This document shows positions 1,549 to 21,594 of a stretch of DNA of 32,000 nucleotides, piece by piece. Numbering within the stretch: the first letter of the stretch is position 1; each line of letters begins with the position of its first letter. The stretch comes from Candidatus Methylomirabilis limnetica (GTDB lineage Bacteria > Methylomirabilota > Methylomirabilia > Methylomirabilales > Methylomirabilaceae). The DNA lies in NCBI RefSeq assembly GCF_003044035.1, contig NZ_NVQC01000022.1:342092-374091 (forward strand), in the 5' to 3' direction. Made by a program: the position numbers and the translations under genes. Below the pieces are notes generated by a model that did no database searches, was not told where the DNA came from, and was given only the letters and a program-made list of their open reading frames with translations.

Positions 1549-2625
1549 CTAGGGCACCGTAGTCAGCAGGGACCAGGATCCTGGCGACACGGCCGGCGTT
1601 GTGCCAAGGGCCGTGTGTTCCACCGCTATCAAATCGGCTGCGGCAAACGTCACGTTGCTTGAGACGAGGCAGTTATCGACAGTATCAGAAATCGTACAGG
1701 TCAGCGTGGTAGCAGCCCCACCATTCCGGACAGTGAACTTACGACTCTGACTAGCACCAGGGCCAACTTTTAGCTTCACCCGCATGACGCTGACGGTGCT
1801 CGCAGGTACAGGGACCGAGACGTCAGTCGATGCCACAGTACTATTGCCATTACCTGGACCCATCCAGCGAAGAGCGGTACCAAGGTCGGCTCCACCTGAC
1901 CCGCCGGTCAGGAGACTCCTGACATTCGGTCCTGCTGGGCCAGTTGCACCTGTGGCGCCCGTGGCACCAGTTGCACCCGTGGCGCCTGTGGCGCCTGTTG
2001 AGCCTGTGGCACCTGTGCCACCTGCGGCACCTGTGGCGCCCGTGGCACCAGTTGCACCCGTGGCGCCTGTTGAGCCTGTTGAGCCTGTTGAGCCTGTGGC
2101 ACCTGTTGAGCCTGTCGGTCCGGCTGGTCCTGTTGGTCCTGTTGCGCCAGTTGGTCCTGTCGGTCCGGCTGGTCCGGCTGGTCCGGCGGCGTCAAGGTTC
2201 TCACTCGCCGCTACCCCTGCCATGACAAGACTGCCGCTGAAGGCCCCCACAAAGGGGAAGAGACGCGCCGGGCTGCCCTGTAGCGCCACCTGCCCCTGGA
2301 TGTTGATCCCCTCTACGGTGCTGGTCGTCAGGTGCCCGGTGCTGTCTACTGAGTAGCTACCGGTGATGTTAAAAGGCGTCGTCGCCCCCCCAACCTCTTT
2401 CATGGACCCTACTATCGCCACCGTACCCGGATTGGCGCAGGGACTTCCGGGAGTAAAAGTCAACGTCCCGAGAGCCTGGGTAGGGATTCCGGGCTCCACC
2501 ATGGTGCTGAAGGAATAGATCCCCGAGAGACTGCAGGAATCGGCTGTCCAGCCGGGTGTAGGCAGGATCAGCACGGCCGCGGTGAGCAGGCCGGCTAGGA
2601 CCGTACTCTTGGTTCGTGTACGCAT
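1549..2625 (-). CDS. Secreted collagen-like (Gly-X-Thr triple-helix repeat) protein
   Basis: The ORF track gives 1549..2718. I prefer the internal ATG at 2625, which has an AAAGGGGG SD just upstream and yields the signal peptide [28 protein letters not shown]. There are about 28 uninterrupted G-X-Y triplets ([16 protein letters not shown]...[11 protein letters not shown]) flanked by non-repetitive domains. Confidence 0.85.
1927..2184 (-). repeat. Coding tandem repeat (9-nt periodic GXT/GXA collagen triplets)
   Basis: Residues 179-264 of the 389-aa ORF. Mostly GAT/GST/GPT/GPA triplets, with nucleotide-level reiteration of gtggc(a/g)cc(t/c)gt units. Confidence 0.85.
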
Positions 2626-2805
2626 AAAGCGCCCCCTTTTCTGTCTACGGTTTACTGGCTCCCTCTTCGCGAAGGAGACACCAACAGAGGATCGTGAAAC
2701 TACGCTTTGAATTATCAACCAACAACCCTGATAAAAAGAGTACTCAGGTCACCACACTGCCTGAATGTAACAGACTACGAGCAGGAAAAGAAGATCAGGA
2801 GAGTC

Positions 2806-2833
2806 AGTATCACAGTCCATCACTTGGTGTCAA
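2806..2833 (-). promoter_or_regulatory. Candidate sigma70 promoter for the collagen-like gene
   Basis: Minus strand reads TTGACA (2833-2828), a 16-nt spacer, then GATACT (2811-2806). This implies a ~175-nt leader. Confidence 0.35.
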
Positions 2834-2852
2834 GTAAAATACGGGCCGGCAC

Positions 2853-3039
2853 GTAACCATTCAGTGAGAGGGGGGAAATCATTAAATAAAATGTGGTATG
2901 TTTTTATAAAATCCCCCTTAATCCCCCTTTTTCAAAGGGGGAAACGGGTAGTCCCCCTCTTTGGAAAAGAGGGGTTAGAGCCTGCCCCGGCATGTATTAA
3001 GCCGGGGGGAGATTTTTCCACCCGTAACTGAATGGTTAC
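2853..3039. mobile_element. MITE (187 bp) with 13-bp terminal inverted repeats and an 8-bp target-site duplication
   Basis: TIRs are GTAACCATTCAGT (2853-2865) and ACTGAATGGTTAC (3027-3039). They are flanked by the direct repeat GCCGGCAC (2845-2852 and 3040-3047). The interior is made of GC hairpins (CCCCCTCTTTGGAAAAGAGGGG, CCCCGGC..GCCGGGG). Confidence 0.6.
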
Positions 3040-3078
3040 GCCGGCACTGTCTTCATTTCGTTCGCGAACCGCTGCCTG

Positions 3079-3221
3079 GTCATTGCGAGCGACCAACGGG
3101 AGCGTGGCAATCCAACCGTTCTGCCTTCCTGGTCTTGAAGAACGGTGAGATTGCTTCGCCTACGGCTCGCAACGACACCGTGTGTCGGATTGCCACGCAC
3201 CCTACGGGTGCTCGCAATGAC
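3079..3221. repeat. Long palindromic REP/MITE-like element (GTCATTGCGAGC...GCGTGGCAATCC family)
   Basis: Two 12-bp perfect inverted pairs: GTCATTGCGAGC (3079-3090) with GCTCGCAATGAC (3210-3221), and GCGTGGCAATCC (3102-3113) with GGATTGCCACGC (3187-3198). A second family member lies at 17371-17447. Confidence 0.6.
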
Positions 3222-3314
3222 GGGAAGAATCGAGCGATTTCGAAGTCTATTGCTGTTCTTGGGCTGGAAATGGCGCTTGAGGGGTCAGGGGCGACCTGTT
3301 ATACTGCCACCGCA

Positions 3315-4277
3315 ATGAACTATCCGCCGCATCTGTCCGTCATCATCCCCCTCTTGAACGAGGCCGACGGTCTGCCGGAACTCTACCGGGAGCTCCAGGA
3401 GGCCCTCCGCCCATGGGCCAATCGCCATGAGCTGATCTTTGTGGATGACGGCAGCACGGACGGCTCATTTGCCGCGCTCGAAAAGCTCCACGCAGAAGAC
3501 CCACGGGTGGTCGTCCTTCGCTTTCGCCGGAATCAGGGAAAGGCGAGCGCGTTGATGGCGGGGTTTCGCCGGGCGAGAGGAGAAATCCTGGTTACGCTCG
3601 ACGCCGACCTGCAGGATGATCCGCGGGAAATCCCGCGATTTCTCGACAAGCTGGACGAGGGGTTCGATCTGGTGTCGGGATGGAAAGTCAAACGCCAGGA
3701 CCCCATCATCAGGCGGGTGCTCTCGCGGGTCTTCAACAGCGTCACGTCGCTGTTCACGGGACTCACGCTCCACGATTTTAATTGCGGCTTCAAATGCTAT
3801 CGGAGGGGTGTGATCCAGGAGATCAGGCTCCACGGGGAGCTGCACCGGTTCATTCCGGCGTTGGCGAGTTGGCGGGGTTTCAGGATAGCGGAGATCGAGG
3901 TCGCACACCGGCCGCGGAAATACGGCCAGTCAAAATACGGCTCCGAACGGATCCCTCGCGGCTTCTTCGACCTGCTGACCGTCTTGATTCTGACCCGCTA
4001 CCATCTGAGGCCACTTCACCTTTTCGGGGCCTTAGGAGCCCTGCTCAGTCTGGCAGGTTCCATCGGTCTAGCGTATCTGGTTTTCGGCTGGTTCTTCGGA
4101 CAATGGATCGGTGACCGCCCCCTCCTCAGCCTCAGCATTCTGACGATGATCATCGGCCTACAGTTCATCTTTTTCGGACTCCTGGCCGAGATCATCGTCT
4201 ACTCCAGCAGGCAAACCGACATCCCCCCGCTTGCCGCTGTCCTCGACCAGGACGACTCTCGCAAGGACATCGATTAA
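3315..4277 (+). CDS. GT2 polyprenyl-phosphate glycosyltransferase (ArnC/GtrB/Dpm1-like) with C-terminal 2-TM anchor
   Basis: MNYPPHLSVIIPLLNEADGL..., FVDDGSTDGS, the DADLQDDP motif, and two C-terminal hydrophobic helices (LFGALGALLSLAGSIGLAYLVF, LLSLSILTMIIGLQFIFFGLLAEIIVY). The ORF-track start at 3135 only translates the upstream palindromic repeat. ATG 3315 is preferred; 3270 is possible. Confidence 0.85.
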   Translation: MNYPPHLSVIIPLLNEADGLPELYRELQEALRPWANRHELIFVDDGSTDGSFAALEKLHAEDPRVVVLRFRRNQGKASALMAGFRRARGEILVTLDADLQDDPREIPRFLDKLDEGFDLVSGWKVKRQDPIIRRVLSRVFNSVTSLFTGLTLHDFNCGFKCYRRGVIQEIRLHGELHRFIPALASWRGFRIAEIEVAHRPRKYGQSKYGSERIPRGFFDLLTVLILTRYHLRPLHLFGALGALLSLAGSIGLAYLVFGWFFGQWIGDRPLLSLSILTMIIGLQFIFFGLLAEIIVYSSRQTDIPPLAAVLDQDDSRKDID

Positions 4278-4359: not shown

Positions 4360-5034
4360 TCACGGTGCGCGATGCGTCTTGCGCCTCCCGCTCGTTTTTC
4401 CTCTCCATCCGGGAGTGCTCCCCTCGTCAGCGGCACGCACCTCCTCTGGAATTCCACCGAAAAACCAATACAGGGCCATCCAGATCAACACCGGTAAAAG
4501 CTGACTCGCCATCGACAGGTAGAAGTTCGTCCCCCAGACAGAGAGGCGACCGGCAACGCTCTGAAAGGCTTCAAGTTCAGGCTGCTGAAAGAATTTCATG
4601 CCGATCACAAGGTACAGTATGTGTGTCAAAAACAGAACACCCAACGCGATCGTCAGACTTACACACCGGCGCCTCCAAGCAACGTGCCGCTGGGCCAATA
4701 CAAGGCCAGTCATGAGAACGAGATTGAAGTGAGTCAAATAGCCTGTGAATCCCTGGATCTTCATCCCTTCCGTAAAAGGGCGATCCGAGCGCATAATTAA
4801 AATATTGCCCTTCCAACCCACGAGGCTATGAACACGAGGGGCCTCTGTGACGGCAAGCAGGACATTGGCGCCGGAGGCGAGAAGGCGGTTGTAGCCGGGG
4901 GTGATGACGAACCACAGGGGGAGGATGAGGCAGAAGACCAGGAGAAACCGGCCGGCAAACGCCAGCAGCGCTTTAGTGTCGGGGAGCACCGACAAACCGC
5001 TCCGTCCAGTAGATCCAGGCCAGAAGGGCGGCAA
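4360..5034 (-). CDS. Polytopic membrane protein co-transcribed with the exosortase (exosortase-associated partner)
   Basis: 224-aa ORF with 5-6 hydrophobic helices. From ATG 5034 it overlaps the exosortase stop by 62 nt. In-frame TTG 4995 or GTG 4989 would shorten the overlap to 17-23 nt. No recognisable soluble domain. Confidence 0.6.
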   Translation of the reverse strand: MPPFWPGSTGRSGLSVLPDTKALLAFAGRFLLVFCLILPLWFVITPGYNRLLASGANVLLAVTEAPRVHSLVGWKGNILIMRSDRPFTEGMKIQGFTGYLTHFNLVLMTGLVLAQRHVAWRRRCVSLTIALGVLFLTHILYLVIGMKFFQQPELEAFQSVAGRLSVWGTNFYLSMASQLLPVLIWMALYWFFGGIPEEVRAADEGSTPGWRGKTSGRRKTHRAP

Positions 5035-5485
5035 AGATGATCAACGATTGCCAAATCAGTAGATGGGCAGTCTCGAAGAATGACGGAAAATAGCGGCCGA
5101 TATACATGAGACTGACCACTCTAATGAGGTTTAAAGAGAGGATCACTGATGCCCCCAGCAGAACCCCCTTGAGTTTCTCTGTCGCCCGACTTGGATAGGC
5201 CAGGACTGCTGACACGTAGATCGCCACGACAAAGATGCCGGTGCACACATCGTCGATCCGAGCCGCAAACCCCTCAACCTGGAGGATAGTTCCCGAAGTC
5301 GTGGCCTTGAGGGACAGGAGGTTCAGGACGAACCCGCTGACTGCGGCAAACGCCAGCGCCAGCGGCTGCCCGACAAGCTCCCGCATGATGCTTGTTCGTA
5401 GGAGCGTGTAAAACACGATGATGCACACCAGGAAGGTGATACATGCCCTGACCACTGGCTTATTTAGACTAAGTCGTTGCTCCAT
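4973..5485 (-). CDS. xrtH: Small exosortase/archaeosortase-family transpeptidase (XrtH-like)
   Basis: 170 aa, all-helical membrane protein. It has the ordered Cys/Arg/His signature of the family: IDDVCTGIF, LNLIRVVSL, ETAHLLIWQ. A protein with an IPTL-CTERM-like tail is encoded at 15847-16746. Confidence 0.7.
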   Translation of the reverse strand: MEQRLSLNKPVVRACITFLVCIIVFYTLLRTSIMRELVGQPLALAFAAVSGFVLNLLSLKATTSGTILQVEGFAARIDDVCTGIFVVAIYVSAVLAYPSRATEKLKGVLLGASVILSLNLIRVVSLMYIGRYFPSFFETAHLLIWQSLIIFAALLAWIYWTERFVGAPRH

Positions 5486-5785: not shown

Positions 5786-6292
5786 TCACGGGATGGTTAC
5801 CCGGTACACGGTCAAGCTGATTTGTGCAATACTGCCTGCAACACCAGCGAAGGTCCCATCGCCACCAAGAATAATGCCGCGCGCCGTATTCGGAGAGTCA
5901 GCAAAGTTCCGGACTATCTTGTAATAGACATTCCCTCCCGGCAGGACCGCAGCCCCATCGGTGTAGTTGAATGTTCCGGCGGACCCATTATAGCGCGGGA
6001 TGGTCTCAAAATAACTCCCAAACGTTGCTGTGCCGTCAGCAGATTTAATCAAGCCTCCTGAATACGCCACATCGAACCCTGCAGCGGACGGATTCAGGCC
6101 GCTAATGGCGCCATCGCTCTGCACGAATTGCACATCAACAATAGTGGCAGCCTTGACGAGACTGGGCAGCAAGATCAGAACAAAGGCAAGCGCCACACAG
6201 CCTCCCCATGATCGCCCCGATCCTCGCCTATGGCGAGTCGTGCTGAGACTCACATGATGCCAGGACAAAATAGCCTCGATGGTTCTTCGCAT
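5786..6292 (-). CDS. Small secreted protein of unknown function
   Basis: 168-aa ORF. A strong SD (AAAAAGGGGGGGGAGGCC) sits directly upstream of ATG 6292. Hydrophobic signal-like segment CVALAFVLILLPSLVKA|ATIVD. No recognisable domain. Confidence 0.6.
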   Translation of the reverse strand: MRRTIEAILSWHHVSLSTTRHRRGSGRSWGGCVALAFVLILLPSLVKAATIVDVQFVQSDGAISGLNPSAAGFDVAYSGGLIKSADGTATFGSYFETIPRYNGSAGTFNYTDGAAVLPGGNVYYKIVRNFADSPNTARGIILGGDGTFAGVAGSIAQISLTVYRVTIP

Positions 6293-6645: not shown

Positions 6646-7404
6646 TCACCGTAGGGGTGTTGCGCGTTGCGGGGGTTCGGTGGCGAGCCTTTGTCGGATA
6701 CGCCAAAGGTCCACCAACATCTGCACGGGGTGACGCAGCAGGCTCACCTGACTGCTCGGATCATTGATCCAGCGCACCGGCATCTCACATACGGCATATC
6801 CCAACTGCATCGCGATAAGGATAGCCTCGACGTCGAAGGCAAAGCCGTCGATACGCGCGTATTGGAAGACCGCGTGCGCCGCCTCGCGCCGAAACAGCTT
6901 GAAACCGCACTGCGTATCCCGAAAAGGGATCGAGAGGTAGACCCGCAGGAGGCGATTGAACAGCTTCCCCATCAATTCCCGCAGGCGAGTCTGACGCACC
7001 AGTATCTGCGATCCTACCAGCGCGCGTGAACCGATCACAAGATCGCTACCCTCCGAAAGGAGCTTCAAGGCTCCATCTACCTCCTCAATGGGTGTGGAGA
7101 GATCCGCATCCGAGAACAGCACGACCGCTCCCGTGGCCGCCATCATACCGGCCCGAATGGCGGCGCCCTTGCCCCGGTTCTGTGAGAAGCGAATCAGCCT
7201 CAACTCCGGCGCGCGCGCCATGAATTGTTCCACGACGGCGACCGTGCTATCGCGCGATCCGTCATCCACTACAATCATCTCGAACCCGCCCGCCCCGTAT
7301 CGGGACCGCAAATAGCCCCACACCCGCTGGAGCGATGGGCCGATCCGACTCGCCTCATTGTACGTGGGAATCACTACGCTTAATTGAATCGCCTCTTGCC
7401 CCAT
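6646..7404 (-). CDS. GT2 glycosyltransferase (dolichyl/polyprenyl-phosphate beta-glucosyltransferase-like)
   Basis: LSVVIPTYNEASRI, VVDDGSRDST, NRGKGAAIRAG, SDADLSTPIEE. No TM segment. Confidence 0.85.
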   Translation of the reverse strand: MGQEAIQLSVVIPTYNEASRIGPSLQRVWGYLRSRYGAGGFEMIVVDDGSRDSTVAVVEQFMARAPELRLIRFSQNRGKGAAIRAGMMAATGAVVLFSDADLSTPIEEVDGALKLLSEGSDLVIGSRALVGSQILVRQTRLRELMGKLFNRLLRVYLSIPFRDTQCGFKLFRREAAHAVFQYARIDGFAFDVEAILIAMQLGYAVCEMPVRWINDPSSQVSLLRHPVQMLVDLWRIRQRLATEPPQRATPLR

Positions 7405-9970
7405 ATATGTCCCGTTGAAACGCTCGCGGACGACGCACGCTGAGTTTCAGGCGACCGTCACCAATACTATTGAAATAGTCCAGTCGAAAATCGTACACGC
7501 CGGCGTTCAGATGTAGGGCGGCGTTCTTCTCTCGATACGTATGGCTTCCACCATTATCGAGCACGATCGCGCCATCGAGGTACAGAAGACTTCCGTCATC
7601 TGAACCAAGGTCGAATCGGTACATCCCGGACTCAACAATGCGCATCCGCCCTTCAAGGCGTAAGGAGAAAGGCGGATCCCAAGGATGCGCCGACAACCCG
7701 GGTGTCCGTATCCAATGGGCTTCAACCGATTCCCCTACCCGAATTTCCCGCCCTGCCTCTGTGTTCTCGCCGCTCCAGTTGACGGCGTGATAGTACCGGC
7801 TTCTCAGCCCCTCAGGAAAGAACCGGGCAATAGGAAGGGTCTCAAAGCAACTGCCCTGCGGGTTCTGAAGCGCCTCATCACCAACCGGATAGACATCCGC
7901 AAGCAGACGTCCCATACGTCCTTCATCTGCATACGAGAGGTGAAACCGGTGGCTACCCTTTTTTAACATCAGTGAGCATTGCATGAGCTGGAAAGGATGC
8001 GTGCCACTGTTGTCCAAGAGGGTATGACCGTCCAGCGTGAGTACGGCGCCATCGTATGAGCCGAGTAGAAAGTTGTACGCGCCTTGCCTCATGATGTGGA
8101 GGGTACCGGAAAGTTCCAAAGAAAACGGCCCCCTACCCCAAGGTCTCTTGGCCAGATATGCAGTTGCTTCCATCGGATCTTCAACCCAGAGAAGATCGAG
8201 CGGGACGCCTCGCCAAGAGAACGGTCTGTTGTGAATGATACCATCCGCGTGCCGTTCGTACTTACTCACGCCGGTCTCGAGGACAAAACCTGGAGAGGGC
8301 GAACCCTTTAAAAATCTATTCGCAATCTTGAGCCGCATAAATCTGGATTCTTTTGGGGACTCCAGCCGTATCGTGAATCGTTTGCGAATCTCAGCAAAGA
8401 TCCTGACCGATTCCAATTCGTAGATCGATTTGTCTGCTACACGCCGGTACATAGGGTGAAAATCCTGAAGGTAATAGACCGTGAATGCCTCTGGAGGCGT
8501 CGGACTGCCCGGATGAATGCTGTCCAGGAACGCTTCCAGCGTTGCCAACGGGCGAATTGGAAGGCATGAGTAGCGGCATTGGGTCGAACCAAACACAAAG
8601 ACGGAGTCCACAAAACGTTTGTGACCGAGGCTTAAGTACAGTCGCTCTAGCGCACCCGCGGGATCAGTGGTGTTCTCGGGGTAGGCAGAGAAGTTATAAA
8701 CAAGCAGCAGCTTTTCTCCCGCGTTGACTCTTGAGCGGGCCTCCAAATACCAATTTACTTCCGACGCGGGCACGAGATAGTCCGCCTGAGAATAGGTAAA
8801 GGGCATCGGGTAGCGCCGCTCATCAACGGGTAGCTTCATGTAATTGACGAGATCTGCCATCTGCCAGATATTACCCAAGCACAGCAACGCAATGAGTACG
8901 ACCTTCGGCCTCTCCCCAAATCGCGACATCCCGGCGGATTCGCAGAACATGCCGACGACCGCCACGATGCAATAGAACTCAACCAGCAGAAATCGTCTCG
9001 GACGCAGCCAATCGGCGCCTTGCATCCCCAGCACAACGACTAACCCGATCTGAAACATGAGGAGGCTCAGGAAGAACCACCGATTGCGTTTGAGAAAGAA
9101 GAGGCTAAATAGTCCCAGTACAAACAGGACCGGGCTGTCGAGTAACTGATCATAGAAAAGCGCTTTGGCAAGATTCGCAATACTTGCGCTGATCGCATCA
9201 ATCGTCACCGAACCGGAATGAACGACGGCTCCTACGTTCCCTCCCGGATATGAGAGGATCGTAGCAAGTTGAACCGTAGCGCCCAGAAGCCATATAATGC
9301 GTGTGCGAAGAGGGACATGTCGATGGAGGACAGCCGCCGCGATAAAGACTACAAACAATGATTTGCCGAGTTCGTACAGGTGCCATGACAGTTCGTTGGC
9401 AACCAGACACAGAACGAGGCTTAATATCCAGTTGCGGCGAACCCGATTGTCTAAGGTAATCCACAGCGCAAGTGCGTGAGGTAGTAAGCCCGTAACATAT
9501 GGATAGCCCGCAACAGAGAAGGAAAGCAGAGCCGGCGACGCGCCCCATGCGAGAAGCAGAATCCAGAATTGACGGATTGGAAGACCGATGAGCCGTATAA
9601 CGAGCCACAGTGTCAGGACGAAGAGGGCGAAGGTAAGCAGGTGCGCCCAATACTCCCATGGCCATAGCGACCCTAGGTAGCCAGGAATCAACGTGTAGAG
9701 AAGGCTGTTGGTGTGATTCCAATATTGGAAGTGCCGTGTGGAATGGACTACGGATATGACGGCGTCCCAAAACGATCGAGTAGATACCAGAAACAGCCCA
9801 TGGGCCGGGCCGAGCACATCCCAACCCGGATAGTAAGGGCCTCGGTACACCACACGCATCCACAACGAAAAGCTAATGCTGAATACGGCGAAGGAGGAGA
9901 AGGCGAGAAAGGCTGCGCGGCTTGAAAGCGGCGCGTTCTGCGGGTCACGTGCGTCATCCTTGTTCAGCAT
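7355..9970 (-). CDS. Large polytopic membrane protein (GT-C-like N-terminal ~560 aa) fused to two C-terminal PA14 domains
   Basis: 871 aa, with GGAG 8 nt upstream of ATG 9970 and 12 or more hydrophobic helices. PA14 signatures: GAYNFLLGSYDGAVLTLDGHTLLDNSGTH (about 7890-8221) and GMYRFDLGSDDGSLLYLDGAIVLDNGGSH...GVYDFRLDYFNSIGDGRLKL (about 7427-7810). Its 3' end overlaps the next GT2 gene by 50 nt. Confidence 0.8.
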   Translation of the reverse strand: MLNKDDARDPQNAPLSSRAAFLAFSSFAVFSISFSLWMRVVYRGPYYPGWDVLGPAHGLFLVSTRSFWDAVISVVHSTRHFQYWNHTNSLLYTLIPGYLGSLWPWEYWAHLLTFALFVLTLWLVIRLIGLPIRQFWILLLAWGASPALLSFSVAGYPYVTGLLPHALALWITLDNRVRRNWILSLVLCLVANELSWHLYELGKSLFVVFIAAAVLHRHVPLRTRIIWLLGATVQLATILSYPGGNVGAVVHSGSVTIDAISASIANLAKALFYDQLLDSPVLFVLGLFSLFFLKRNRWFFLSLLMFQIGLVVVLGMQGADWLRPRRFLLVEFYCIVAVVGMFCESAGMSRFGERPKVVLIALLCLGNIWQMADLVNYMKLPVDERRYPMPFTYSQADYLVPASEVNWYLEARSRVNAGEKLLLVYNFSAYPENTTDPAGALERLYLSLGHKRFVDSVFVFGSTQCRYSCLPIRPLATLEAFLDSIHPGSPTPPEAFTVYYLQDFHPMYRRVADKSIYELESVRIFAEIRKRFTIRLESPKESRFMRLKIANRFLKGSPSPGFVLETGVSKYERHADGIIHNRPFSWRGVPLDLLWVEDPMEATAYLAKRPWGRGPFSLELSGTLHIMRQGAYNFLLGSYDGAVLTLDGHTLLDNSGTHPFQLMQCSLMLKKGSHRFHLSYADEGRMGRLLADVYPVGDEALQNPQGSCFETLPIARFFPEGLRSRYYHAVNWSGENTEAGREIRVGESVEAHWIRTPGLSAHPWDPPFSLRLEGRMRIVESGMYRFDLGSDDGSLLYLDGAIVLDNGGSHTYREKNAALHLNAGVYDFRLDYFNSIGDGRLKLSVRRPRAFQRDIYGARGDSIKRSDSHVQ

Positions 9971-10073: not shown

Positions 10074-10823
10074 TCACCTCCTGGTCGCCTGGCGGCCCTT
10101 TATGCACACCTGCAACCACAGTAGAAACAGGCTGCCGAAGCGATAGAGGCCCTCGTGGAGAAGGTTGAACCGGCTCTTTCGCCGATCGTCGCACCAGACC
10201 GGCACCTCAACAATGACGGCGCCATCGCGTTGACCCCAAGCGATGAGTTGCAGGATATAGGCGCTCTGGTCGGCCAAATACGGGAGATATGGCCGTATGG
10301 AGTCGATCCGAAATGCCTTGGCGCCGATCGAGTAGTCCGTAAACTCGAGGTGAAGCAATCGGCGCGTGCAGGCGATGAATGCCGCGCTCGCCATGTGTCG
10401 GATCCGCGAGCGCTGCTGCCCCCCGGTCTGCTTGGAGCCGATGACGATGTCCGCCGTGTCGAGTGTTGCCGCTGCGGCCGTGATGAAGTCGAGATCGATG
10501 GTGAGGTCGAGATCGAGACACACCACCCGGTCATACTGCGCGCGCGTAATCCCGGCCTTGAATGCGCGGCCCACCCCGCGCTGCGGTAATTCAATCACTG
10601 TGAGGTCCGTACACCCCACCGCACATGCCCTGGCGATCTCGACGGTCCGGTCGGTCGAGCCATTGCTTATCAGGAGCAGTTCATACGCCGTAATCTCTCG
10701 GTCCTTCAGGCAGCGCCTGAGGCGGTCGACGTTGGCGGCAAGAATGGCTTCTTCGTTATACGCCGGGAGGATGAATGTCAGTGGAGCTCGGCGTTGGTGA
10801 GCATCACGCGAGTCTTGGGGCAT
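10074..10823 (-). CDS. GT2 glycosyltransferase
   Basis: LTFILPAYNEEAIL, LISNGSTDRT, and an LDLDLTIDLDF acidic motif. Starts 10 nt after the radical SAM stop, indicating operonic arrangement. Confidence 0.8.
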   Translation of the reverse strand: MPQDSRDAHQRRAPLTFILPAYNEEAILAANVDRLRRCLKDREITAYELLLISNGSTDRTVEIARACAVGCTDLTVIELPQRGVGRAFKAGITRAQYDRVVCLDLDLTIDLDFITAAAATLDTADIVIGSKQTGGQQRSRIRHMASAAFIACTRRLLHLEFTDYSIGAKAFRIDSIRPYLPYLADQSAYILQLIAWGQRDGAVIVEVPVWCDDRRKSRFNLLHEGLYRFGSLFLLWLQVCIKGRQATRR

Positions 10824-10832: not shown

Positions 10833-12191
10833 CTAGGAGAAGGCCGGTCGCACGTAGTCCCAGAACAGTGCGGCCTGTCGGCGCCAAAGGTGAAGGTCTA
10901 CCCGGCGAATCCTGGACCAGAGCACCGCCGGTCGCAGGTAGAACTCGCGGAAGGCCCGGTCGGCGACGGCCTGAAGGAGACGGGGATCGTGCTCCTTGCT
11001 CAGCACGTCGGGGAACAGTTCCGAGGCGCCGCTCATCTCGTACAGCGTCGTGCCCAGGTAGGGAGTCACGGCATGAAACGACGCATAGGTTGGGTTCAGT
11101 CGCTTGGCAAATGCGATTGTCGCCTCCATATCCTCGGCGGTCTCTCCCGGAAAGCCGAACATGAAGAAACAGACCTGATCGATTCCTGACTGCTTCGTCT
11201 CTGCAATTCCCCGTTCGATCTGCTCAAGAGTAATCCGCTTGTTAGTTTCGGCAAGAATTCTGGCTGAACCGCTTTCCACGCCGAAGTGGATGAGCCGACA
11301 GCCGGCCCGCTTCATCAATTGCAGAAGCGGCCCGTCCACATAATCGGCCCTGGTCTGGCACGCCCACTCGAAGGATAACTTCGCTGACGCCAGTCGTTCA
11401 CAGAGATCCCAGACGTCGTCGCGGACCGCAGTAAACTCGAGATCGATGAAGTAGCCTGTCTCGGCTCCTGCCTCTCGAACCAGATACGTCACCTCACGGA
11501 TAACCTGCTCAGGATCTTTCTTACGGTAGCCTTTGCCGTACATCTTGAGGAGGCAGAAAGAACATCGATAGTGACAACCGCGCGTCGCTTCAAGTAGGGC
11601 AAACCTGCCGCCGAGGACTTCGTAACGGTAGTTGCGGAGGTCGAGGAGATGAAAAGCGGGCAGTGGCAGGGTTGTCAGATCTATGGGGTTTCCTTCCGGG
11701 GTATTGATGAGCGTGCCCCCTTGCAGATAGCTAATACCCGGCACCTCGGAAGGATCTTTGCCATCACAGAGCGCTCGGACCGCCAGTTCAGGCTCACCAC
11801 GGATCACGGCCCGCGCCCGCGTCATGTTGAGAAGTTCGCCAGGCGCAACGGTCCCATGTGTCCCCATGACGTACAGCTTGTCGGGTTCTACCAGATGTGT
11901 AACGGCCAGGAATGGGCTGAGATCAAGGTTGGGGCATTGCCACCGATCAATCGGCGCTGAGGTGATAAACACCAGATCGTGCTGCGTCGCGGCGTCTCGA
12001 ATCGCATCGAGTGGGGTGGGCGTGGCGCGGGCATCGATGATGCTGGCGCTATGTCCATCCTGTTCCAGCAGTGCCGCGCAGTTCAGCAGGTCAAGGGGAG
12101 GCCATGTCCGATTGAACCGGCGTCCTTTTCGGCTTACCAGCCCGTCCCAGCTCGGATTGACCAGCAGGACTTTCAGTCGCCTTCCCGCCAT
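10833..12191 (-). CDS. B12-binding-domain radical SAM protein (class B rSAM)
   Basis: N-terminal LKVLLVNPSW... Rossmann-like cobalamin-binding region, followed by the CxxxCxxC cluster EATRGCHYRCSFC. Confidence 0.85.
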   Translation of the reverse strand: MAGRRLKVLLVNPSWDGLVSRKGRRFNRTWPPLDLLNCAALLEQDGHSASIIDARATPTPLDAIRDAATQHDLVFITSAPIDRWQCPNLDLSPFLAVTHLVEPDKLYVMGTHGTVAPGELLNMTRARAVIRGEPELAVRALCDGKDPSEVPGISYLQGGTLINTPEGNPIDLTTLPLPAFHLLDLRNYRYEVLGGRFALLEATRGCHYRCSFCLLKMYGKGYRKKDPEQVIREVTYLVREAGAETGYFIDLEFTAVRDDVWDLCERLASAKLSFEWACQTRADYVDGPLLQLMKRAGCRLIHFGVESGSARILAETNKRITLEQIERGIAETKQSGIDQVCFFMFGFPGETAEDMEATIAFAKRLNPTYASFHAVTPYLGTTLYEMSGASELFPDVLSKEHDPRLLQAVADRAFREFYLRPAVLWSRIRRVDLHLWRRQAALFWDYVRPAFS

Positions 12192-12233: not shown

Positions 12234-12297
12234 AATCTCCCTTTACCCCTCTTTGCCAAAGAGGGGATTTATTCCTCCCTTTGGAAAAGGGAGGTTA
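12234..12297. repeat. Double-hairpin intergenic repeat, interrupted at its 3' side by the IS
   Basis: CCCCTCTTT-gcc-AAAGAGGGG (12246-12266) and CCTCCCTTT-gga-AAAGGGAGG (12274-12294). The rest of the repeat (GGAGGGATT) resumes at 13597, on the other side of the IS. Confidence 0.6.
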
Positions 12298-13593
12298 GGC
12301 AGTGTAAATAAATAAAGGTATCAACTTCGCTCTGTAGCTTTTGGTCTTATGACGTAGTTCCAGTCGCCATGAAACTTATTACGTTCCACATTGATGCGCT
12401 TCATCTCTTCATCGCTAACCTTGCGTCCGGTTGGATATTTCCGGCGATCCAATCTACACGTCACTTTCAGCCCCTTCGCCGTGGTCGTCCTGGCGATGAG
12501 ATTGACGATCGTTTCGTAATCCCGCAACGGTTCACCACGCCAATTTGACGTGATAAAGGAAAACAGCCGGTGTTCGATCTTGTTCCATTTGCTGGTGCCG
12601 GGAGGAAAATGACAGACGGAAAGGCACATGCCGGTTTGATCAGCAAACTTCTGCAACTCCAACTTCCAAAGCCGCAACCGCGACCCATTGCTCCCCCCGC
12701 CGTCGGCAGTGATCAGAAGCGTTGCCGTATCCGGATACAGCCGTCGTCCTTCAAAATGCCACCACCCGCGAATCGAGGCCACGGCAAATTCTCCAGTGTC
12801 ATGGTCGGTCCCCACATTGACAAAACCGGCGTTGCGTCCGAGGTCGTAAATACCATACGGATAGGCGCGTGGCACTTCTGGGCTGGGGAAGTCGTGACCT
12901 TGAACTTTTTTGGGCTGCTTTGCCGGAAGCCATTGCTGACCGGCATTGTTGTAGTTGCCGATGAGTTCCTTCTTTTTTGTGTCCACCGAAATCACAGGAA
13001 TGCCTTGCGCCAGGCGTCTCTTTACCGCAGCATTGATGTGCCGAAATTGCGCATCGCGGTCGGGGTGGTCTGTGCCCTCCTCGGTCTTCCGATTGCTCTG
13101 CAGACTATAGTTCAGATCGTGAAGAATCTGCGCGACCTTTGCATGGCTGACCGGGTGCTTGTTCCTGCCAAGCTGCCTGGCAATCGCCCGCGTGCTTTTA
13201 CAAATCCATCGCAGGGGGGACTGTGGATCGCCTCGCGTTTGGCCATCAATCATCTCTTCCAATGCATCCAACAGACGTGGGTCGGAAACGGTGATGGACT
13301 TGCGCCCTGCTCCGGGACAACGGATGCGACCTTCCGATGGCACTATCCCTTCTTGAATTTCGCGGACTCCTTTGGCGATGGCCCGTCGCGACAATCCACA
13401 CGCGCGATGCACCACAGAGATTCCACCAAAGCCCAAACTCACGGCTTCATTAGCAGCCATGATGCGGCGCGTGCGCTCGTCCAAAAGCGGCCACACAGAA
13501 CGAAACTTCCGTCTCAACTCGGGCAGGGTGTTCATGCTCAAGAAGCATACCACCACAACTCATAGATTGATACCTTTATTTATTTACACTGCC
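12298..13593 (-). mobile_element. Intact ISAzo13-family insertion sequence (1296 bp)
   Basis: Perfect 27-bp terminal inverted repeats GGCAGTGTAAATAAATAAAGGTATCAA (12298-12324) and the reverse complement (13567-13593). Flanked by the direct repeat TTA (12295-12297 and 13594-13596). Single full-length transposase ORF. Confidence 0.9.
12321..13556 (-). CDS. ISAzo13-family DDE transposase
   Basis: Characteristic blocks: DPQSPLRW, HPDRDAQFRHIN, PVISVDTKKKELIGNY, PYGIYD, ITADGGGSNGSRLRLWK, HFPPGTSKWNKIEHRLFS, NWRGEPL. The likely true start is ATG 13535 (MNTLPELRRKF). The stop codon lies inside the left IR. Confidence 0.9.
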   Translation of the reverse strand: MVVCFLSMNTLPELRRKFRSVWPLLDERTRRIMAANEAVSLGFGGISVVHRACGLSRRAIAKGVREIQEGIVPSEGRIRCPGAGRKSITVSDPRLLDALEEMIDGQTRGDPQSPLRWICKSTRAIARQLGRNKHPVSHAKVAQILHDLNYSLQSNRKTEEGTDHPDRDAQFRHINAAVKRRLAQGIPVISVDTKKKELIGNYNNAGQQWLPAKQPKKVQGHDFPSPEVPRAYPYGIYDLGRNAGFVNVGTDHDTGEFAVASIRGWWHFEGRRLYPDTATLLITADGGGSNGSRLRLWKLELQKFADQTGMCLSVCHFPPGTSKWNKIEHRLFSFITSNWRGEPLRDYETIVNLIARTTTAKGLKVTCRLDRRKYPTGRKVSDEEMKRINVERNKFHGDWNYVIRPKATERS

Positions 13594-15768
13594 TTAGGAG
13601 GGATTTTCTAAGGAACTGTATCTTTTCCTCGAAAGAAATACAAGCGTTTCAGCGAGGAGCAACGCGATTCCGGCCGCTGTGGCAACCCGTCCAACATAAT
13701 CAGGCCAGCGATTGCCGAAGACGAGCCGGACCTGCTTGGCCGTGGGATAGACCAGCATGAATGATGGTGACACCAGATAGATCCGATCGGCGCCCTCAAC
13801 GCGCCATTTCGGGTGATACGAGACCTTGATCAGGTGCGGGCGACCAGGGCACTCGGTCTCAAACCGAACCTCCTCATTGCCCAAGGCGTCTTTCACGTGG
13901 CATTCGGGCGAAAGGACCTGTTTAACGGGCTCCTCCATTAAGTCACGAAACGGCACGACTCCCGGCGGTACCGGATCGCCGGGTCGTGGGAAAAGGAGCG
14001 GTACCTCCAGCCATTCCGGTTTTTGGAACCAGTCATAAGCGAGTCGTTTCCAGTCGCCATCGGTCACGAGGGCAGGCTGGTATCGAAGCGGTACAACATA
14101 CTGGCCGTTGCCTTGACGGACCTGGAAGATCTTGTAGGGTCCGATTTCCCCCTCCTCGCGGTACCCAGGATTCGACCCCAGGGCAGCCTTCACCCTATCC
14201 GTGACGGCAATCACCTCTTTGACGTTGAACAGCTCCAAATGGGCGAGTGCCCGCTCCGGGTCGAATGGCGAACATTTGTAGGGAACGAAGGGACAAGAAG
14301 GAGTGTCCGTTAGTTCAGACTGGATGTAGAACACGAACGGGGAGGTCGGAGAGGACTGCATGTAGGCCCCTTCGAGCGTTGGGCGGCCCGATATAAGGGG
14401 GAGAGCCTCAAAAGCCCTGATCGTACCGGCCTTATCATGGAGAACCGAATGTTGGTACACGACTCTGGGACTGTGGGGGCCGCCTGGTAGCGCAATAGAA
14501 TTCACGACAATAAAGTATCGCCACCACGGTGTCTGCTCCATTCCGGAAAAATTCCACTGGATCCATTTGGGGATAAACGACACCTGAGGCATGACCCAGG
14601 CGATAGTCATCACGGCGATGACGACAGGCGCCGCTCGCCAGAGTGAACGCGGTAGCCGCATCAGAAGTCCACCGAGACCGGCTGCGGCCAAGAGGACGAG
14701 AAAAAACTGCGCAAAGGCCAGGAACCTGACATCTACAAGGTTCAGCCAGGGTGAAACAAAATACAGGGTGACCGATAGCACCACAGGGTAGGTCAGGTAG
14801 TAGATCATCCGAAGCCATCCCTTGTCGCTAAATTTCCCCCGCAGTGTCAAGGCTACTGTGACCGCCGCAATGACGATGATGGGCCATAGCACGACCGGAA
14901 CGATCTCCAGGATAGATGTAAACTCCCAGGTAATGGAGAACCCGGTAGTGTAAGGAAGGTACCAGACGAGCGGAATCAACCAGAATCCCAGCAGCAGCCC
15001 GCCCACAGCATACACCCGCACCAGGTACAGGAGCGTCATCCGGAACTCCGAGGTCACAGCAAGGAAGTACAGCCCCATACCCGCCGCCATCACCATCCCG
15101 TATCCGTGCGCTAATCCGGTAAGGGCGAAGAGTACGGCACACCAGCCTGCGTACCGCCGCTCAAGGACGCCTCGGTACAGTGCACCCATGAATAATACGA
15201 GGAGCGTAAGTGAGAGGCTGTGAGAAAACTCGCCGGCCAGCGTGCTCGGAATGTTTCCACCCCACATGCTGTTGCCTGCGTTCAGCAGGAATGGAAGGGT
15301 CAGAACGGCGCCAAGCGCAGGAATGGGGAACGGACATCCGATCCAGCGGAGCGCAACGAGGGAGGCGATCGGGAGCCCGAAGGTTCCGGCGATAGTCCCC
15401 AGCTTAAATGCAATAGGGAATGAGACGACAAGACTGAACCCGGCGATCAGCAGGAAGGCAAGGGGAAAATAGAAAAGGAAGAGGGGATAGCCGGCGAGGT
15501 TGCCCGGCATCCAGCCAATAAGCTTTCCATTAGGCAAGAGGTAATCCCGCAGATATCTTGCCGCGACATAGTGTGCGATGGTGTCGCCACCGCCAGTGAT
15601 AGTCGGCTTGAAAAGGAGGGAGGGTTTAAGGTACCAGAGAAGGAGTCCGTAGGTCAGCAGGAGGGCCAAGAGCGTGCTCACTCTCTCAACCCATCCGGGA
15701 TATCTTCCCGTTGGAACTGCGTCGGGTTCGGCGGAGGCTGTACGTACAGATTCGCGAACGTCCAGCAT
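13594..15768 (-). CDS. Very large polytopic membrane protein (candidate GT-C-like enzyme; resembles the PTPS-related/COG5617-type membrane family) with a ~300-aa C-terminal extracytoplasmic domain
   Basis: The ORF track starts at TTG 15786, which lies inside the upstream terminator. ATG 15768 is preceded by GGAGCGGTC. N-terminal motif GGDTIAHYVAARYLRDYLLPNGKLIGWMPGNLAGYPLFLFYFPLAF, then about 13 helices, a soluble domain and a final TM. The stop TAA coincides with the TTA duplicated by the IS. Confidence 0.7.
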   Translation of the reverse strand: MLDVRESVRTASAEPDAVPTGRYPGWVERVSTLLALLLTYGLLLWYLKPSLLFKPTITGGGDTIAHYVAARYLRDYLLPNGKLIGWMPGNLAGYPLFLFYFPLAFLLIAGFSLVVSFPIAFKLGTIAGTFGLPIASLVALRWIGCPFPIPALGAVLTLPFLLNAGNSMWGGNIPSTLAGEFSHSLSLTLLVLFMGALYRGVLERRYAGWCAVLFALTGLAHGYGMVMAAGMGLYFLAVTSEFRMTLLYLVRVYAVGGLLLGFWLIPLVWYLPYTTGFSITWEFTSILEIVPVVLWPIIVIAAVTVALTLRGKFSDKGWLRMIYYLTYPVVLSVTLYFVSPWLNLVDVRFLAFAQFFLVLLAAAGLGGLLMRLPRSLWRAAPVVIAVMTIAWVMPQVSFIPKWIQWNFSGMEQTPWWRYFIVVNSIALPGGPHSPRVVYQHSVLHDKAGTIRAFEALPLISGRPTLEGAYMQSSPTSPFVFYIQSELTDTPSCPFVPYKCSPFDPERALAHLELFNVKEVIAVTDRVKAALGSNPGYREEGEIGPYKIFQVRQGNGQYVVPLRYQPALVTDGDWKRLAYDWFQKPEWLEVPLLFPRPGDPVPPGVVPFRDLMEEPVKQVLSPECHVKDALGNEEVRFETECPGRPHLIKVSYHPKWRVEGADRIYLVSPSFMLVYPTAKQVRLVFGNRWPDYVGRVATAAGIALLLAETLVFLSRKRYSSLENPS

Positions 15769-15777
15769 GACCGCTCC

Positions 15778-15812
15778 AAAAAGCAAGAACGGGGCTTAAC
15801 GCCCCGTTCTTG
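15778..15812 (-). terminator. Rho-independent terminator after the IPTL-CTERM cargo gene
   Basis: 12-bp stem CAAGAACGGGGC/GCCCCGTTCTTG (15801-15812 / 15784-15795) with a 5-nt loop. On the minus strand it is followed by C plus T5 (15778-15782). Confidence 0.7.
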
Positions 15813-15846: not shown

Positions 15847-16746
15847 TTACTGCAGGTGATTTCTTCGAGCTCTCACCATCCAAGCCATCGCACCCAGGAA
15901 CGCCGCTCCCAACACCATCATTCCCCAGTTACCGACCGTCGGGACCACCGGAATCGTCGTCGTGGTGGTCGTCGTGGTCGTCGTGGTCGTCGTGGTGGTG
16001 GTTACCGTAACGCTGGTGGTATCAGAATCGCCTGTGGCGTTATCAACAAGGCTGCCAGCTGCGACGTCGAAGCCCGCGCCGCCGCCGGATACGTTCAGCG
16101 TCCCTGCGGTGTTCGGGGTGATGAACGAATTCCCATTATAGACAAAGAGGATGCCCTGGTTCAGACTCAAGCTGATCCCGTCGACAGGCTGTGCGGCAGC
16201 ATCAGCAATCGAACACGTGGCGGTTCCCCCAAACCCATACACGCTGTCGCCACAATTCACGTTGTTCGTGATGCTGGCGACAGGGGCGAGCGCGCTGATC
16301 AGTGTCAGGCCGGCATCACCGAATCCAGCCACCGTGGTGGCGCCAGAGGCCCATGACCCGGCACCAGTGGCAGAGAAGGTCACGGCGGGCGTGCAGGCGG
16401 CCAGCGACAGGGTCCCGGTCCGCTTCCCCTGAGCCAGAGCGGTAAGAGGGGTCGCCGGTACCTTGGCAATCAGGGTAGTCCCGCTGCTGACGGTTTGAAC
16501 CACCGTCGCCGCAGAATTGAAGGCGATAGACATTGAGACGTTGGTCAGACGGTCATGATCGGTCCCAGCCGGCTGTGCATCCGAACAGAGGTACTGATAG
16601 ACGGTTCCATCGCTGGCAATGTCGATGCGCTGCTGCACCCGTGCATCGACACTCATCGGGGCGATAACCGTTCCCGCAAGGATCGCGGGGGCCAGCAGAG
16701 ACAGAGCCAACTTCTTGCTGAAAGCAACTCTTGCTCTAGAACTCAT
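15847..16746 (-). CDS. Secreted protein with Thr16 linker and IPTL-CTERM-like exosortase sorting signal
   Basis: AAGGAGGAG SD upstream of ATG 16746. Signal peptide MSSRARVAFSKKLALSLLAPAILAGTVIAPMSVDA. C-terminus ...TVTTTTTTTTTTTTTTTTIPVVPTVGNWGMMVLGAAFLGAMAWMVRARRNHLQ, i.e. motif, TM helix and basic cluster. Confidence 0.8.
   Translation of the reverse strand: MSSRARVAFSKKLALSLLAPAILAGTVIAPMSVDARVQQRIDIASDGTVYQYLCSDAQPAGTDHDRLTNVSMSIAFNSAATVVQTVSSGTTLIAKVPATPLTALAQGKRTGTLSLAACTPAVTFSATGAGSWASGATTVAGFGDAGLTLISALAPVASITNNVNCGDSVYGFGGTATCSIADAAAQPVDGISLSLNQGILFVYNGNSFITPNTAGTLNVSGGGAGFDVAAGSLVDNATGDSDTTSVTVTTTTTTTTTTTTTTTTIPVVPTVGNWGMMVLGAAFLGAMAWMVRARRNHLQ
15955..16002 (-). repeat. Homopolymeric Thr tract (16 consecutive ACG/ACC codons)
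   Basis: The plus strand reads cgtcgtcgtggtggtcgtcgtggtcgtcgtggtcgtcgtggtggtggt. In frame, immediately before the IPVVPTVGNWG sorting motif. Confidence 0.9.
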
Positions 16747-19893: not shown

Positions 19894-20343
19894 TTGCTGC
19901 TACCCATTCTGCTCCAGGGCTGCCTGGGCGGCACCGGGTACCGGGCCTACCCGCGCGCTCGAACCAGTGTCTATACTGACATCTGGAACTTCAGTGACCA
20001 TGAGATTGCCGCTGACCAGGTGGACGTACTCTATCGTCGAGTCGCCCGTCTGATGGCGATCACTCCGAATAATTCCACACCCAGGCCACAGGTGCTGGTG
20101 GTGTCCCCTGCCTACATTCAGGAGAAGTATCTCACTATTCACCCCTTAGCCGCAGCACGGAATGGTACCGCGCTCGCCGTCTACATTCCTCATCAGAACC
20201 AGATCCTGATCCCGGATTTTGACCGCACGCTGCTGACCCATGAGCTGGCTCACTATTTTACCTTCCACTACCTCTCGATCCCCCGATCCGGCTGGGAAGC
20301 GATCGCCGATCAGGTCGTGGATGCTGAAGAGGCGGGAGGCTGA
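19894..20343 (+). CDS. Small HExxH lipoprotein, paralog 1 (5' end probably extends to 19846/19849)
   Basis: The ORF track starts at TTG 19894, which has no SD. The frame is open upstream, and GAAAAGGAGCGG (19831-19842) is followed by ATC ATA (19846-19851). Starting there gives (I)FAARKSRRLVAFSLLLLPILLQGC, a complete lipoprotein signal with lipobox LLQGC. C-terminal THELAHYFTFHY...GWEAIAD motif. Confidence 0.65.
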   Translation: MLLPILLQGCLGGTGYRAYPRARTSVYTDIWNFSDHEIAADQVDVLYRRVARLMAITPNNSTPRPQVLVVSPAYIQEKYLTIHPLAAARNGTALAVYIPHQNQILIPDFDRTLLTHELAHYFTFHYLSIPRSGWEAIADQVVDAEEAGG

Positions 20344-20375
20344 CGGCTGGGCCACCCTTGCCGGCCCAGGATCTG

Positions 20376-20786: not shown

Positions 20787-20976
20787 GAAGCCTGGTCAGC
20801 CCTTTTGGGGTGAGCTGAAGAGGGAAACATCCCAGCCTTCCAATCAGACGCTTGACCCGCTGCTGGCGAATAAGCGCCTCCAGAGAGCGATGGATGAGTT
20901 CCTTCTTCGTCTTGGCCTTGCTGAGCGCCTGGGCCTGCTTCATGAGCCTCTCATCAATCTCCAATGTGGTTCTCAT
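20773..20976 (-). CDS. vapB: VapB-type antitoxin (short DUF2191-like)
   Basis: MRTTLEIDERLMKQAQALSKAKTKKELIHRSLEALI... The internal ATG at 20976 has the SD AAAGGAGGA 6 nt upstream, whereas the ORF-track start at 21027 lies inside the promoter. Confidence 0.8.
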   Translation of the reverse strand: MRTTLEIDERLMKQAQALSKAKTKKELIHRSLEALIRQQRVKRLIGRLGCFPLQLTPKGLTRLRADG

Positions 20977-20992
20977 TGAGGGTCCTCCTTTA

Positions 20993-21573: not shown

Positions 21574-21594
21574 TTATGTCAGTGGCGTAGAAGG

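Follow-up and report, generated by a model that had tools for sequence, protein, structure and literature searches.

An exosortase H and its partner membrane protein in Candidatus Methylomirabilis limnetica, with a putative S-layer protein substrate

The window analysed here is a 32,000-nucleotide (nt) stretch of contig NZ_NVQC01000022.1 from the methane oxidiser Candidatus Methylomirabilis limnetica, and all coordinates are given in its numbering. Between positions 4360 and 5485, on the minus strand, lie the gene of a short exosortase, exosortase H (XrtH), and an overlapping gene for a second membrane protein. We consider it likely that this pair is XrtH with its cognate partner, that the two are translationally coupled, and that their substrate is the orthologue of a surface-layer (S-layer) protein, encoded elsewhere in the window and processed by the route set out below. 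Systems of this type are known. The link between a sortase pair and a characterised bacterial S-layer protein is, judging from the literature searched, apparently unpublished. Handles that begin with L are genome loci fetched for comparison, and those that begin with P are homologous proteins.

The sortase gene, xrtH, occupies 4973-5485 on the minus strand. It starts with ATG and encodes 170 amino acids (aa) with five predicted transmembrane (TM) helices and a short three-stranded sheet. The protein scores 91.5 bits against the NCBIfam model TIGR04177 (cutoff 86) and covers positions 1-152 of the model's 158. TIGR04177 is the best of 17 exosortase and archaeosortase models, followed by archaeosortase B (72 bits, cutoff 150) and XrtX (65 bits, cutoff 170). 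The generic exo_archaeo signature TIGR04178 is also exceeded (54.6 bits against a cutoff of 23), as is Pfam PF09721, Exosortase_EpsH (37.4 bits against 25.7). A length of 170 aa fits the short polytopic architecture of exosortase H, which is about 160-170 aa. The subtype proposed in the earlier note, which was made from the letters of this DNA, is therefore borne out. The exact sequence is deposited as PTL35872.1 / WP_107562763.1, under the NCBI name 'exosortase H [Ca. Methylomirabilis limnetica]'. Judged by these scores, the 170-aa protein is a genuine XrtH that had already been catalogued and correctly annotated.

The residues agree with the family assignment made by the earlier note, which had seen Cys, Arg and His in the order expected for exosortases. 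Cys81 lies in DDVCTGIF (codon 5243-5245), Arg122 in LNLIRVV (5120-5122) and His141 in ETAHLLIW (5063-5065). C81, T82, G83, N119, R122 and H141 do not vary in alignments of 16 and of 32 homologues, down to 37% identity. Cys81, Arg122 and His141 are the catalytic candidates of XrtH. The note had let its assignment hang on a family hit and on conservation of these three residues; the protein passes TIGR04177 and all three are invariant. It had also called the protein all-helical, and this needs correction. The AlphaFold2 model (mean predicted local distance difference test 90.2, predicted template modelling score 0.82) has helices at 9-30, 32-56, 84-96, 101-132 and 134-165, and a small three-stranded sheet at 62-76, just ahead of Cys81. 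Hydropathy agrees with the helices. A profile search of the Protein Data Bank (PDB) sequences with XrtH found nothing, and a Foldseek search of the PDB with the model gave nothing better than an E-value of 0.6 and a template modelling score of 0.4. We know of no solved exosortase structure available for comparison.

The partner gene also lies on the minus strand. In the mechanical list of open reading frames (ORFs) it spans 4360-5034, starts with TTG, encodes 224 aa and overlaps xrtH by 62 nt. Gene calls on six independent contigs with an identical XrtH start it at GTG 4989, which gives 209 aa (4360-4989) and an overlap of 17 nt. MLPNTK is the N-terminus at this position in 21 of 21 aligned partner homologues, and a GGAG stands about 10 nt 5' of the GTG. 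We argue that the true start is most likely GTG 4989 rather than TTG 5034. The earlier note had described a 224-aa polytopic ORF overlapping the sortase's stop; the overlap stands, and its extent and the length of the protein do not. An overlap of 17 nt makes translational coupling of the two genes probable. The note was silent on strand. The pair and the ORF at 15847-16746, which encodes the putative substrate, are all on the minus strand. Neither ORF of the pair is a chance frame, since the sortase is above the curated XrtH cutoff and homologues of the partner number over 120 at E <= 5e-67.

NCBI lists the partner as 'hypothetical protein CLG94_08970', and the earlier note called its role unknown. 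That statement stands, yet the protein is no orphan. By profile comparison and gene adjacency it is a divergent, sub-threshold member of the catalogued XrtH-associated family NF041730 / PF28117. Its alignment to NF041730 ('XrtH-associated membrane protein') is weak, with a score that is weighed below, and nonetheless spans model positions 3-180 of 184. The same model is matched weakly and over its full length by 20 of 22 members of the partner clade (best E 2.7e-6), which match essentially no other model. Precomputed Pfam matches to PF28117 (XrtH_assoc) exist on some clade members, and a weak one on the M. lanthanidiphila orthologue. When the broad partner clade is aligned with canonical NF041730 members by hhalign, the probability is 95.9% (E 5.9e-9) over 189 columns, end to end. 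The broad partner profile reaches canonical members at E 5.7e-6 to 1e-4. The family is small: a search of 1.84 billion representatives of 50%-identity clusters finds 180 at E <= 0.001.

Gene order gives another line of reasoning. Genome loci with XrtH relatives were fetched from many phyla, 80 in all, and 74 of them had enough downstream sequence for a partner count. In most of the 80, the partner-clade profile alone matches the ORF that comes straight after the XrtH gene. When it is used together with the canonical NF041730 profile, a member of the partner family is present in 65 of the 74 loci, and in 63 it is directly downstream on the same strand. The loci with an adjacent member come from Acidobacteriota, Proteobacteria, Nitrospinota, Chloroflexota and others. 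The proteobacterial proteins downstream of XrtH are bona fide NF041730 members (103-170 bits).

The partner has about four TM helices. Hydropathy and a low-confidence AlphaFold2 model suggest that the N-terminus forms a long TM helix, followed by a beta-hairpin loop of some 40 residues and then by three more helices. The model (mean predicted local distance difference test 56.9) was built from a shallow alignment of 22 sequences with at least 57% identity, and its secondary structure alone was used. The partner profile found only a chance match among the PDB sequences (E 0.025). No polar residue is invariant in both partner clades, the divergent and the canonical. Among ten examined proteins longer than 360 aa, six (P0303, P0339, P0370, P0377, P0390 and P0393) have the four-helix domain fused to a C-terminal TPR region of about 200 aa. 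These fusions, together with the lack of a shared invariant polar residue, favour a scaffold or protein-contact role for the family. Most likely the partner serves a minimal five-helix sortase as a non-catalytic subunit or adaptor.

One can imagine a different role, in which the partner supplies the TM helices that the minimal XrtH lacks relative to the 8-TM exosortases, so that the two proteins form a split exosortase core. XrtH does cover only the C-terminal part of the longer models: positions 110-252 of 254 in PF09721, 101-204 of 271 in archaeosortase A and 127-236 of 256 in XrtQ. The relative in L011 likewise covers 89-206 of 241 in 8TM_EpsH. The partner has about four TM helices and is nearly always adjacent. 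However, not one of 22 partner sequences matches an exosortase or archaeosortase model at E <= 1, and hhalign gives the partner against XrtH a probability of 0.24%. On that same value the idea that the partner is a degenerate XrtH paralogue was rejected. The beta-hairpin loop and the TPR fusions of some lineages are also not known for exosortase N-termini, and we regard a split core as improbable. It could also be proposed that the partner belongs to the glycosylation pathway, for instance as a flippase or in acceptor handling, and is merely co-transcribed with xrtH. It does sit between xrtH and an ArnC-like glycosyltransferase in a locus rich in glycosylation genes. But the 63 adjacent family members are spread over many phyla, including loci that lack these glycosylation genes. 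This disfavours the proposal, and we give it hardly any weight.

The partner family may reach further. Nine loci of Planctomycetota, Bacteroidota and Myxococcota (L044, L050, L057, L058, L059, L075, L078, L081 and L085) have an XrtH-like sortase followed by a membrane protein of about 200-270 aa that both partner profiles miss. The two sortases that were tested, from L044 and L059, score 72-77 bits and are under the TIGR04177 cutoff. Three of the nine loci also encode proteins with an IPT[LVM]SxWG tail. These membrane proteins may be further diverged partners. The partner in the window itself shows that the XrtH-associated family extends beyond the reach of the curated model.

The putative substrate of the pair is a secreted protein of 299 aa encoded at 15847-16746 on the minus strand; the same interval translated on the plus strand has stop codons within it. 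In the protein a signal peptide precedes an S-layer-type body, which is followed by a poly-Thr segment (about 15955-16005) and an IPTL-CTERM tail (about 15850-15945). Its N-terminus, MSSRARVAFSKKLALSLLAPAILAGTVIAPMSVDA, resembles a signal peptide. The C-terminal tail reads TTTTIPVVPTVGNWGMMVLGAAFLGAMAWMVRARRNHLQ, and the ORF terminates in TTTTTTTTTTIPVVPTVGNWGMMVLGAAFLGAMAWMVRARRNHLQ. The tail is at the extreme C-terminus, right after the poly-Thr, and consists of VPTVGNWG, a TM helix and RARR. It scores 25.5 bits against TIGR04174, IPTL-CTERM (cutoff 20.5), which upholds the pairing with an IPTL-type tail that the earlier note had drawn. This is the sole ORF with such a tail in the window. 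IPTL-type tails also occur within 6 kilobases (kb) of XrtH in seven loci of other phyla and in a Methylomirabilis metagenome-assembled genome (MAG), L007. These eight related loci support the pairing of enzyme and tail in general.

The protein that builds the polygonal S-layer of the sister species M. lanthanidiphila, mela_00855, has been characterised by experiment. Its 316 aa include a signal peptide and, from residue 285 to 312, an IPTL-CTERM domain; the mass is 31.6 kDa and the isoelectric point 8.42 (Gambelli et al. 2021, PMC8671808). The gene is highly transcribed and flanked by glycosylation genes, and mela_00856 is a glycosyltransferase (PMC8671808). Immunogold labelling and cryo-tomography located the protein, and the S-layer lies outside the outer membrane in the diderm Methylomirabilis (PMC8671808). 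Mass spectrometry found peptides over the whole mature protein except the C-terminal tail, and the immunoblot band is at about 90 kDa against the predicted 31.6 kDa (PMC8671808). The absent C-terminal peptides and the 90 kDa band fit removal of the tail, modification, or both. The paper notes the IPTL-CTERM domain, and the word exosortase is absent from it (PMC8671808). It is the only paper with IPTL-CTERM in the literature searched.

L087 is the XrtH locus of M. lanthanidiphila in assembly GCA_019912285.1. Its gene at 2462-3412 encodes 316 aa with a computed mass of 31,621 Da and an isoelectric point of 8.42. It adjoins a family 4 glycosyltransferase (GT4) gene and a UDP-sugar dehydrogenase gene, which matches the published description (PMC8671808). 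Since length, mass, isoelectric point and neighbours agree, this gene is mela_00855. BLASTP aligns its product with the window protein over the full length at 35% identity (E 3e-21), and the two genes have neighbours in common, a GT4 and a PTPS_related gene. By alignment and gene order, the 299-aa window protein is the positional orthologue of mela_00855. L087 has both genes, the S-layer gene and xrtH, on a single contig with a distance of 6.6 kb. In the published assembly, GCA_902196205.1, the contig with xrtH (L088, CABIKM010000031.1) begins 444 nt upstream of that gene and the S-layer gene is on another contig. This may explain why the link went unnoticed.

The tail is the conserved part of the protein. 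The bodies of the orthologues in L087, L089 and L007 are down to 35-39% identity, and their poly-Thr, V[IV]PTVGxWG, helix and ARR are near-invariant. A homologue search with the substrate gave nine proteins, none of them named, and was swamped by poly-Thr words. P0258 and P0259, both from metagenomes, have unrelated passenger domains followed by a near-identical tail of poly-Thr, VPTVGNWG or AAGNWG, a helix and ARK or ARR. The passenger domain of P0259 is of the DUF3494 type, and one of the two has a precomputed PF11999 match. From such sequences, poly-Thr plus IPTL tail behaves as a movable cassette, and the clade probably has several XrtH substrates. P0254 is a variant of another kind. In it, an S-layer-type body with 48% identity to the 299-aa protein is joined at the C-terminal end by an HYR-domain region, and there is neither poly-Thr nor an IPTL tail. 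Lacking the tail, it would be independent of XrtH.

Four lineages share the order of genes around the pair. It runs GT4, a secreted protein of about 300 aa, the tailed S-layer protein, PTPS_related, a B12-binding radical SAM protein, a family 2 glycosyltransferase (GT2), a variable GT-C slot, XrtH and the partner, and then GT2, PMT_2-TPR and BNR genes. The lineages are M. limnetica (the window and L001), M. lanthanidiphila (L087), a Methylomirabilota MAG whose XrtH is 76% identical (L089, L090) and a MAG of M. oxygeniifera (L007). The earlier note had called an exosortase within a GT-C glycosylation locus unusual. Relative to other XrtH loci this is so: in 76 such loci from outside Methylomirabilota, no relatives of the glycosylation genes were detected within 6 kb. 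Across the loci compared, the glycosylation context is a conserved feature of the Methylomirabilota clade and not an oddity of the window.

The GT4 gene beside the substrate gene is at 18556-19683 on the plus strand (PF13692 100.2 bits, PF00534 89.3 bits). It is the counterpart of the glycosyltransferase that adjoins mela_00855, and L087 and L089 have the same layout. The genes described next, up to xrtH, are on the minus strand. Directly 3' of the substrate gene, at 13594-15786, is the PTPS_related gene, a candidate polytopic glycosyltransferase of the GT-C type (PF10131, 121.7 bits) that fills the same slot in L087, L089, L090 and L007. The B12-binding radical SAM protein, at 10833-12191, is HpnJ/BchE-like (PF04055, 88.7 bits; the best NCBIfam model, HpnJ, is under its cutoff at 168 bits) and is kept in L087 and L089. 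A 249-aa GT2 upstream of xrtH follows at 10074-10823 (PF00535, 76.4 bits), and the same 249-aa gene is in L087, L089 and L090. The variable slot holds an 871-aa polytopic protein with a C-terminal PA14 domain at 7355-9970 (PF07691, 80.9 bits; the GT-C-like DUF6056, PF19528, is under its cutoff at 20.2 bits). In L087 this slot has a 502-aa PMT_2 protein, and in L089 it is empty. A GT2 of 252 aa is at 6646-7404 (PF00535, 111.6 bits). Directly upstream of xrtH, at 5786-6196, is a gene for a small secreted protein with no family match, gene-called at 136 aa and mechanically at 168 aa. It is found only on contigs with this exact XrtH and not in the other Methylomirabilota loci.

On the far side of the partner, on the plus strand at 3270-4277, is an ArnC/PgfS/AglJ-like GT2 with C-terminal TM helices (PF00535, 118.1 bits). 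It is gene-called at 335 aa in L001, and the mechanical ORF starts at 3135. It scores 204 bits over the full length of NF007986 (ArnC), 135 against PgfS and 78 against AglJ, all of them under the equivalog cutoffs. By its family matches it is likely a polyprenyl-phosphate sugar synthase that feeds lipid-linked donors to the GT-C enzymes.

In the window the shared order is interrupted. An insertion sequence (IS) element occupies 12297-13594 on the minus strand, with an ISAZ013-type DDE transposase (ORF 12321-13556; PF07592, 454.9 bits) and perfect 28-nt terminal inverted repeats at 12297-12324 and 13567-13594. Its junction abuts the stop codon of the PTPS_related gene, so it inserted at the 3' end of that gene. 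Neither L087 nor L089 has a transposase gene at the equivalent position. We regard the element as an interruption and not as a functional part of the locus. It divides the substrate and PTPS_related genes from those of the radical SAM protein, the GT2 and XrtH. It may be polar on the radical SAM, GT2 and xrtH genes.

It must be noted that several observations count against our reading of the pair and its substrate. XrtH is barely above its cutoff and is a peripheral member of its family; proteobacterial XrtH proteins score 190-240 bits, and those of Acidobacteriota, Nitrospinota and others 96-131 bits. The partner scores only 12.5-13 bits against NF041730 (E 0.06-0.09), below the cutoff of 35. 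The substrate is marginally under the threshold of Pfam PF18203, at 20.2 against 20.8 bits. Its gene is 10 kb from xrtH with the IS element between them, which makes co-transcription unlikely. The published proteomics detected no glycans on those parts of mela_00855 that peptides covered, and a preliminary stain for glycans was also negative (PMC8671808). The tails of P0258 and P0259 imply that the S-layer protein is not the only substrate of XrtH. Cleavage of the tail by XrtH is inferred by analogy with related enzymes, and the processed protein would still have to pass from the inner membrane to the outside of the outer membrane. Our literature search found no paper on XrtH and no characterised bacterial XrtH. 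To our knowledge, bacterial exosortases are common in genomes and have been the subject of almost no biochemistry.

Some of these observations suggest another explanation. XrtH and its partner could be a general sortase for scattered IPTL-CTERM proteins, in which case their nearness to the S-layer and glycosylation genes would be an accident of this clade without functional coupling. P0258 and P0259 carry near-identical tails on other passengers, as such a sortase would have it. XrtH loci of other phyla lack these glycosylation genes, several tailed proteins occur at some such loci (three in tandem in L011), and the IS element already splits the substrate from xrtH in the window. However, four lineages have kept the locus order despite 76-84% identity in XrtH and 35-75% in the substrate. 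A general sortase is also compatible with processing of the S-layer protein, and denies only exclusivity. We therefore find a chance neighbourhood unlikely, and favour XrtH with its cognate partner acting on the S-layer orthologue.

We propose the following route for XrtH, its partner and the S-layer protein. The precursor would be exported by Sec and held in the inner membrane by its C-terminal helix. XrtH would recognise the V-P-T-V-G-x-W-G motif at the outer face of that membrane. Cys81, aided by Arg122 and His141, would attack the motif and form an acyl-enzyme, as is proposed for archaeosortase A. The TM-plus-basic tail would be removed, and the new C-terminus passed to an acceptor, a lipid head group or some other envelope component. 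The processed protein would then join the S-layer outside the outer membrane. The poly-Thr before the motif is a likely target for O-glycosylation by periplasmic GT-C enzymes, which would be fed by the ArnC/PgfS-like GT2. The partner would act as a non-catalytic subunit or adaptor of XrtH. Cleavage of the tail and glycosylation of the poly-Thr would together explain why mela_00855 gave no C-terminal peptides and why it ran anomalously on gels.

It is worth comparing this proposal with the systems already known. The closest is the canonical XrtH / IPTL-CTERM system of Burkholderiales, Usitatibacter, Lysobacter and Thiotrichaceae (TIGR04177, TIGR04174, NF041730, PF28117). It has the same three components, and its partner gene is directly 3' of xrtH, often overlapping. 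The sortase is about 160-170 aa in both, with the Cys, N-x-x-R and His signature, and the tail in both is [IV]PT-x-x-x-WG, a TM helix and a basic cluster. The scores are where they part: 91.5 bits for the window XrtH against 190-240 for the proteobacterial proteins, and 13 bits for the partner against 103-170. The window motif is VPTVGNWG, whereas the canonical one is IPTLSEWG, and the window locus holds the substrate together with GT-C, GT2 and radical SAM genes.

ArtA / PGF-CTERM, which acts on the S-layer glycoprotein of Haloferax volcanii, resembles the proposed system in its substrate. The enzymes belong to a homologous superfamily, in that archaeosortase models match XrtH, and both have a tail of motif, TM helix and basic cluster after a Thr-rich region. 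The active site of ArtA is Cys-173, and a thioester intermediate resolved by the amine of a lipid ethanolamine is proposed for the anchoring of the Haloferax S-layer glycoprotein (PMC7157517). Unlike XrtH, ArtA is longer and has no partner of the XrtH_assoc type; its functional partners are the lipid enzymes PssA and PssD. Its substrate is a glycoprotein, whereas glycosylation of the Methylomirabilis counterpart is putative only. Haloferax is a monoderm archaeon, so that lipid anchoring to its cytoplasmic membrane puts the S-layer directly into position. The Methylomirabilis cell is diderm, and its S-layer is outside the outer membrane. XrtA / PEP-CTERM (EpsH) is of the same superfamily and also uses a tripartite C-terminal sorting signal, but it has an 8-TM core, of which XrtH covers about the last 140 of 254 positions in PF09721. 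It is typically linked to exopolysaccharide loci and has many substrates, and its motif is PEP rather than IPTL. The characterised counterpart of the window substrate is mela_00855, which shares its signal peptide, poly-Thr, tail and neighbouring genes at 35% identity. The bodies are strongly diverged, and S-layer formation was shown for M. lanthanidiphila only.

The window has other features. Two c-di-GMP-I-GGC (cyclic di-GMP) riboswitch aptamers (Rfam RF03167, gathering score 59) are on the plus strand at 21601-21681 (69.8 bits) and 28970-29050 (62.6 bits). Their leaders are near-duplicates, and the mechanical ORFs at 21538-22239 and 28907-31006 have identical first 32 residues. The aptamer at 21601-21681 precedes a small lipoprotein with a HELAH motif. 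The protein that follows the one at 28970-29050 is secreted, has some 630 aa and combines CARDB and FN3 with a right-handed beta-helix. A paralogue of the lipoprotein without a riboswitch is at 19894-20343. The stretch 19894-28300 is accessory and rich in toxin-antitoxin genes. Toxins of the PIN type are encoded at 20376-20786 and 23980-24399 and one of the MazF/PemK type at 25686-26144, and the gene at 27959-28297 is that of a Phd/YefM antitoxin. The gene of an HU protein is at 25327-25602. At 1549-2718, on the minus strand, is a gene for a 389-aa protein that has collagen triple-helix repeats (PF01391, 45 bits) and resembles Scl-type adhesins. It is flanked by the ArnC-like GT2 and by an uncharacterised ORF of 386 aa.

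Our full reading goes further than the identity of the pair, and we put it forward tentatively, with less than even confidence. Methylomirabilota would have a two-protein sortase, a five-helix XrtH with a four-helix partner, that matures and anchors the S-layer protein that gives the cell its polygonal shape, while GT-C enzymes glycosylate the poly-Thr stalk. If this is true, the system would be the bacterial counterpart of the archaeal pathway of ArtA and the S-layer glycoprotein, and XrtH would be the first exosortase with an experimentally characterised substrate. For the orthologue of that substrate in the sister species, purification, cryo-tomography and mapping by mass spectrometry have already been done, which makes it a natural model substrate for XrtH. 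The locus thus provides a concrete hypothesis on S-layer processing and anchoring in Methylomirabilis.

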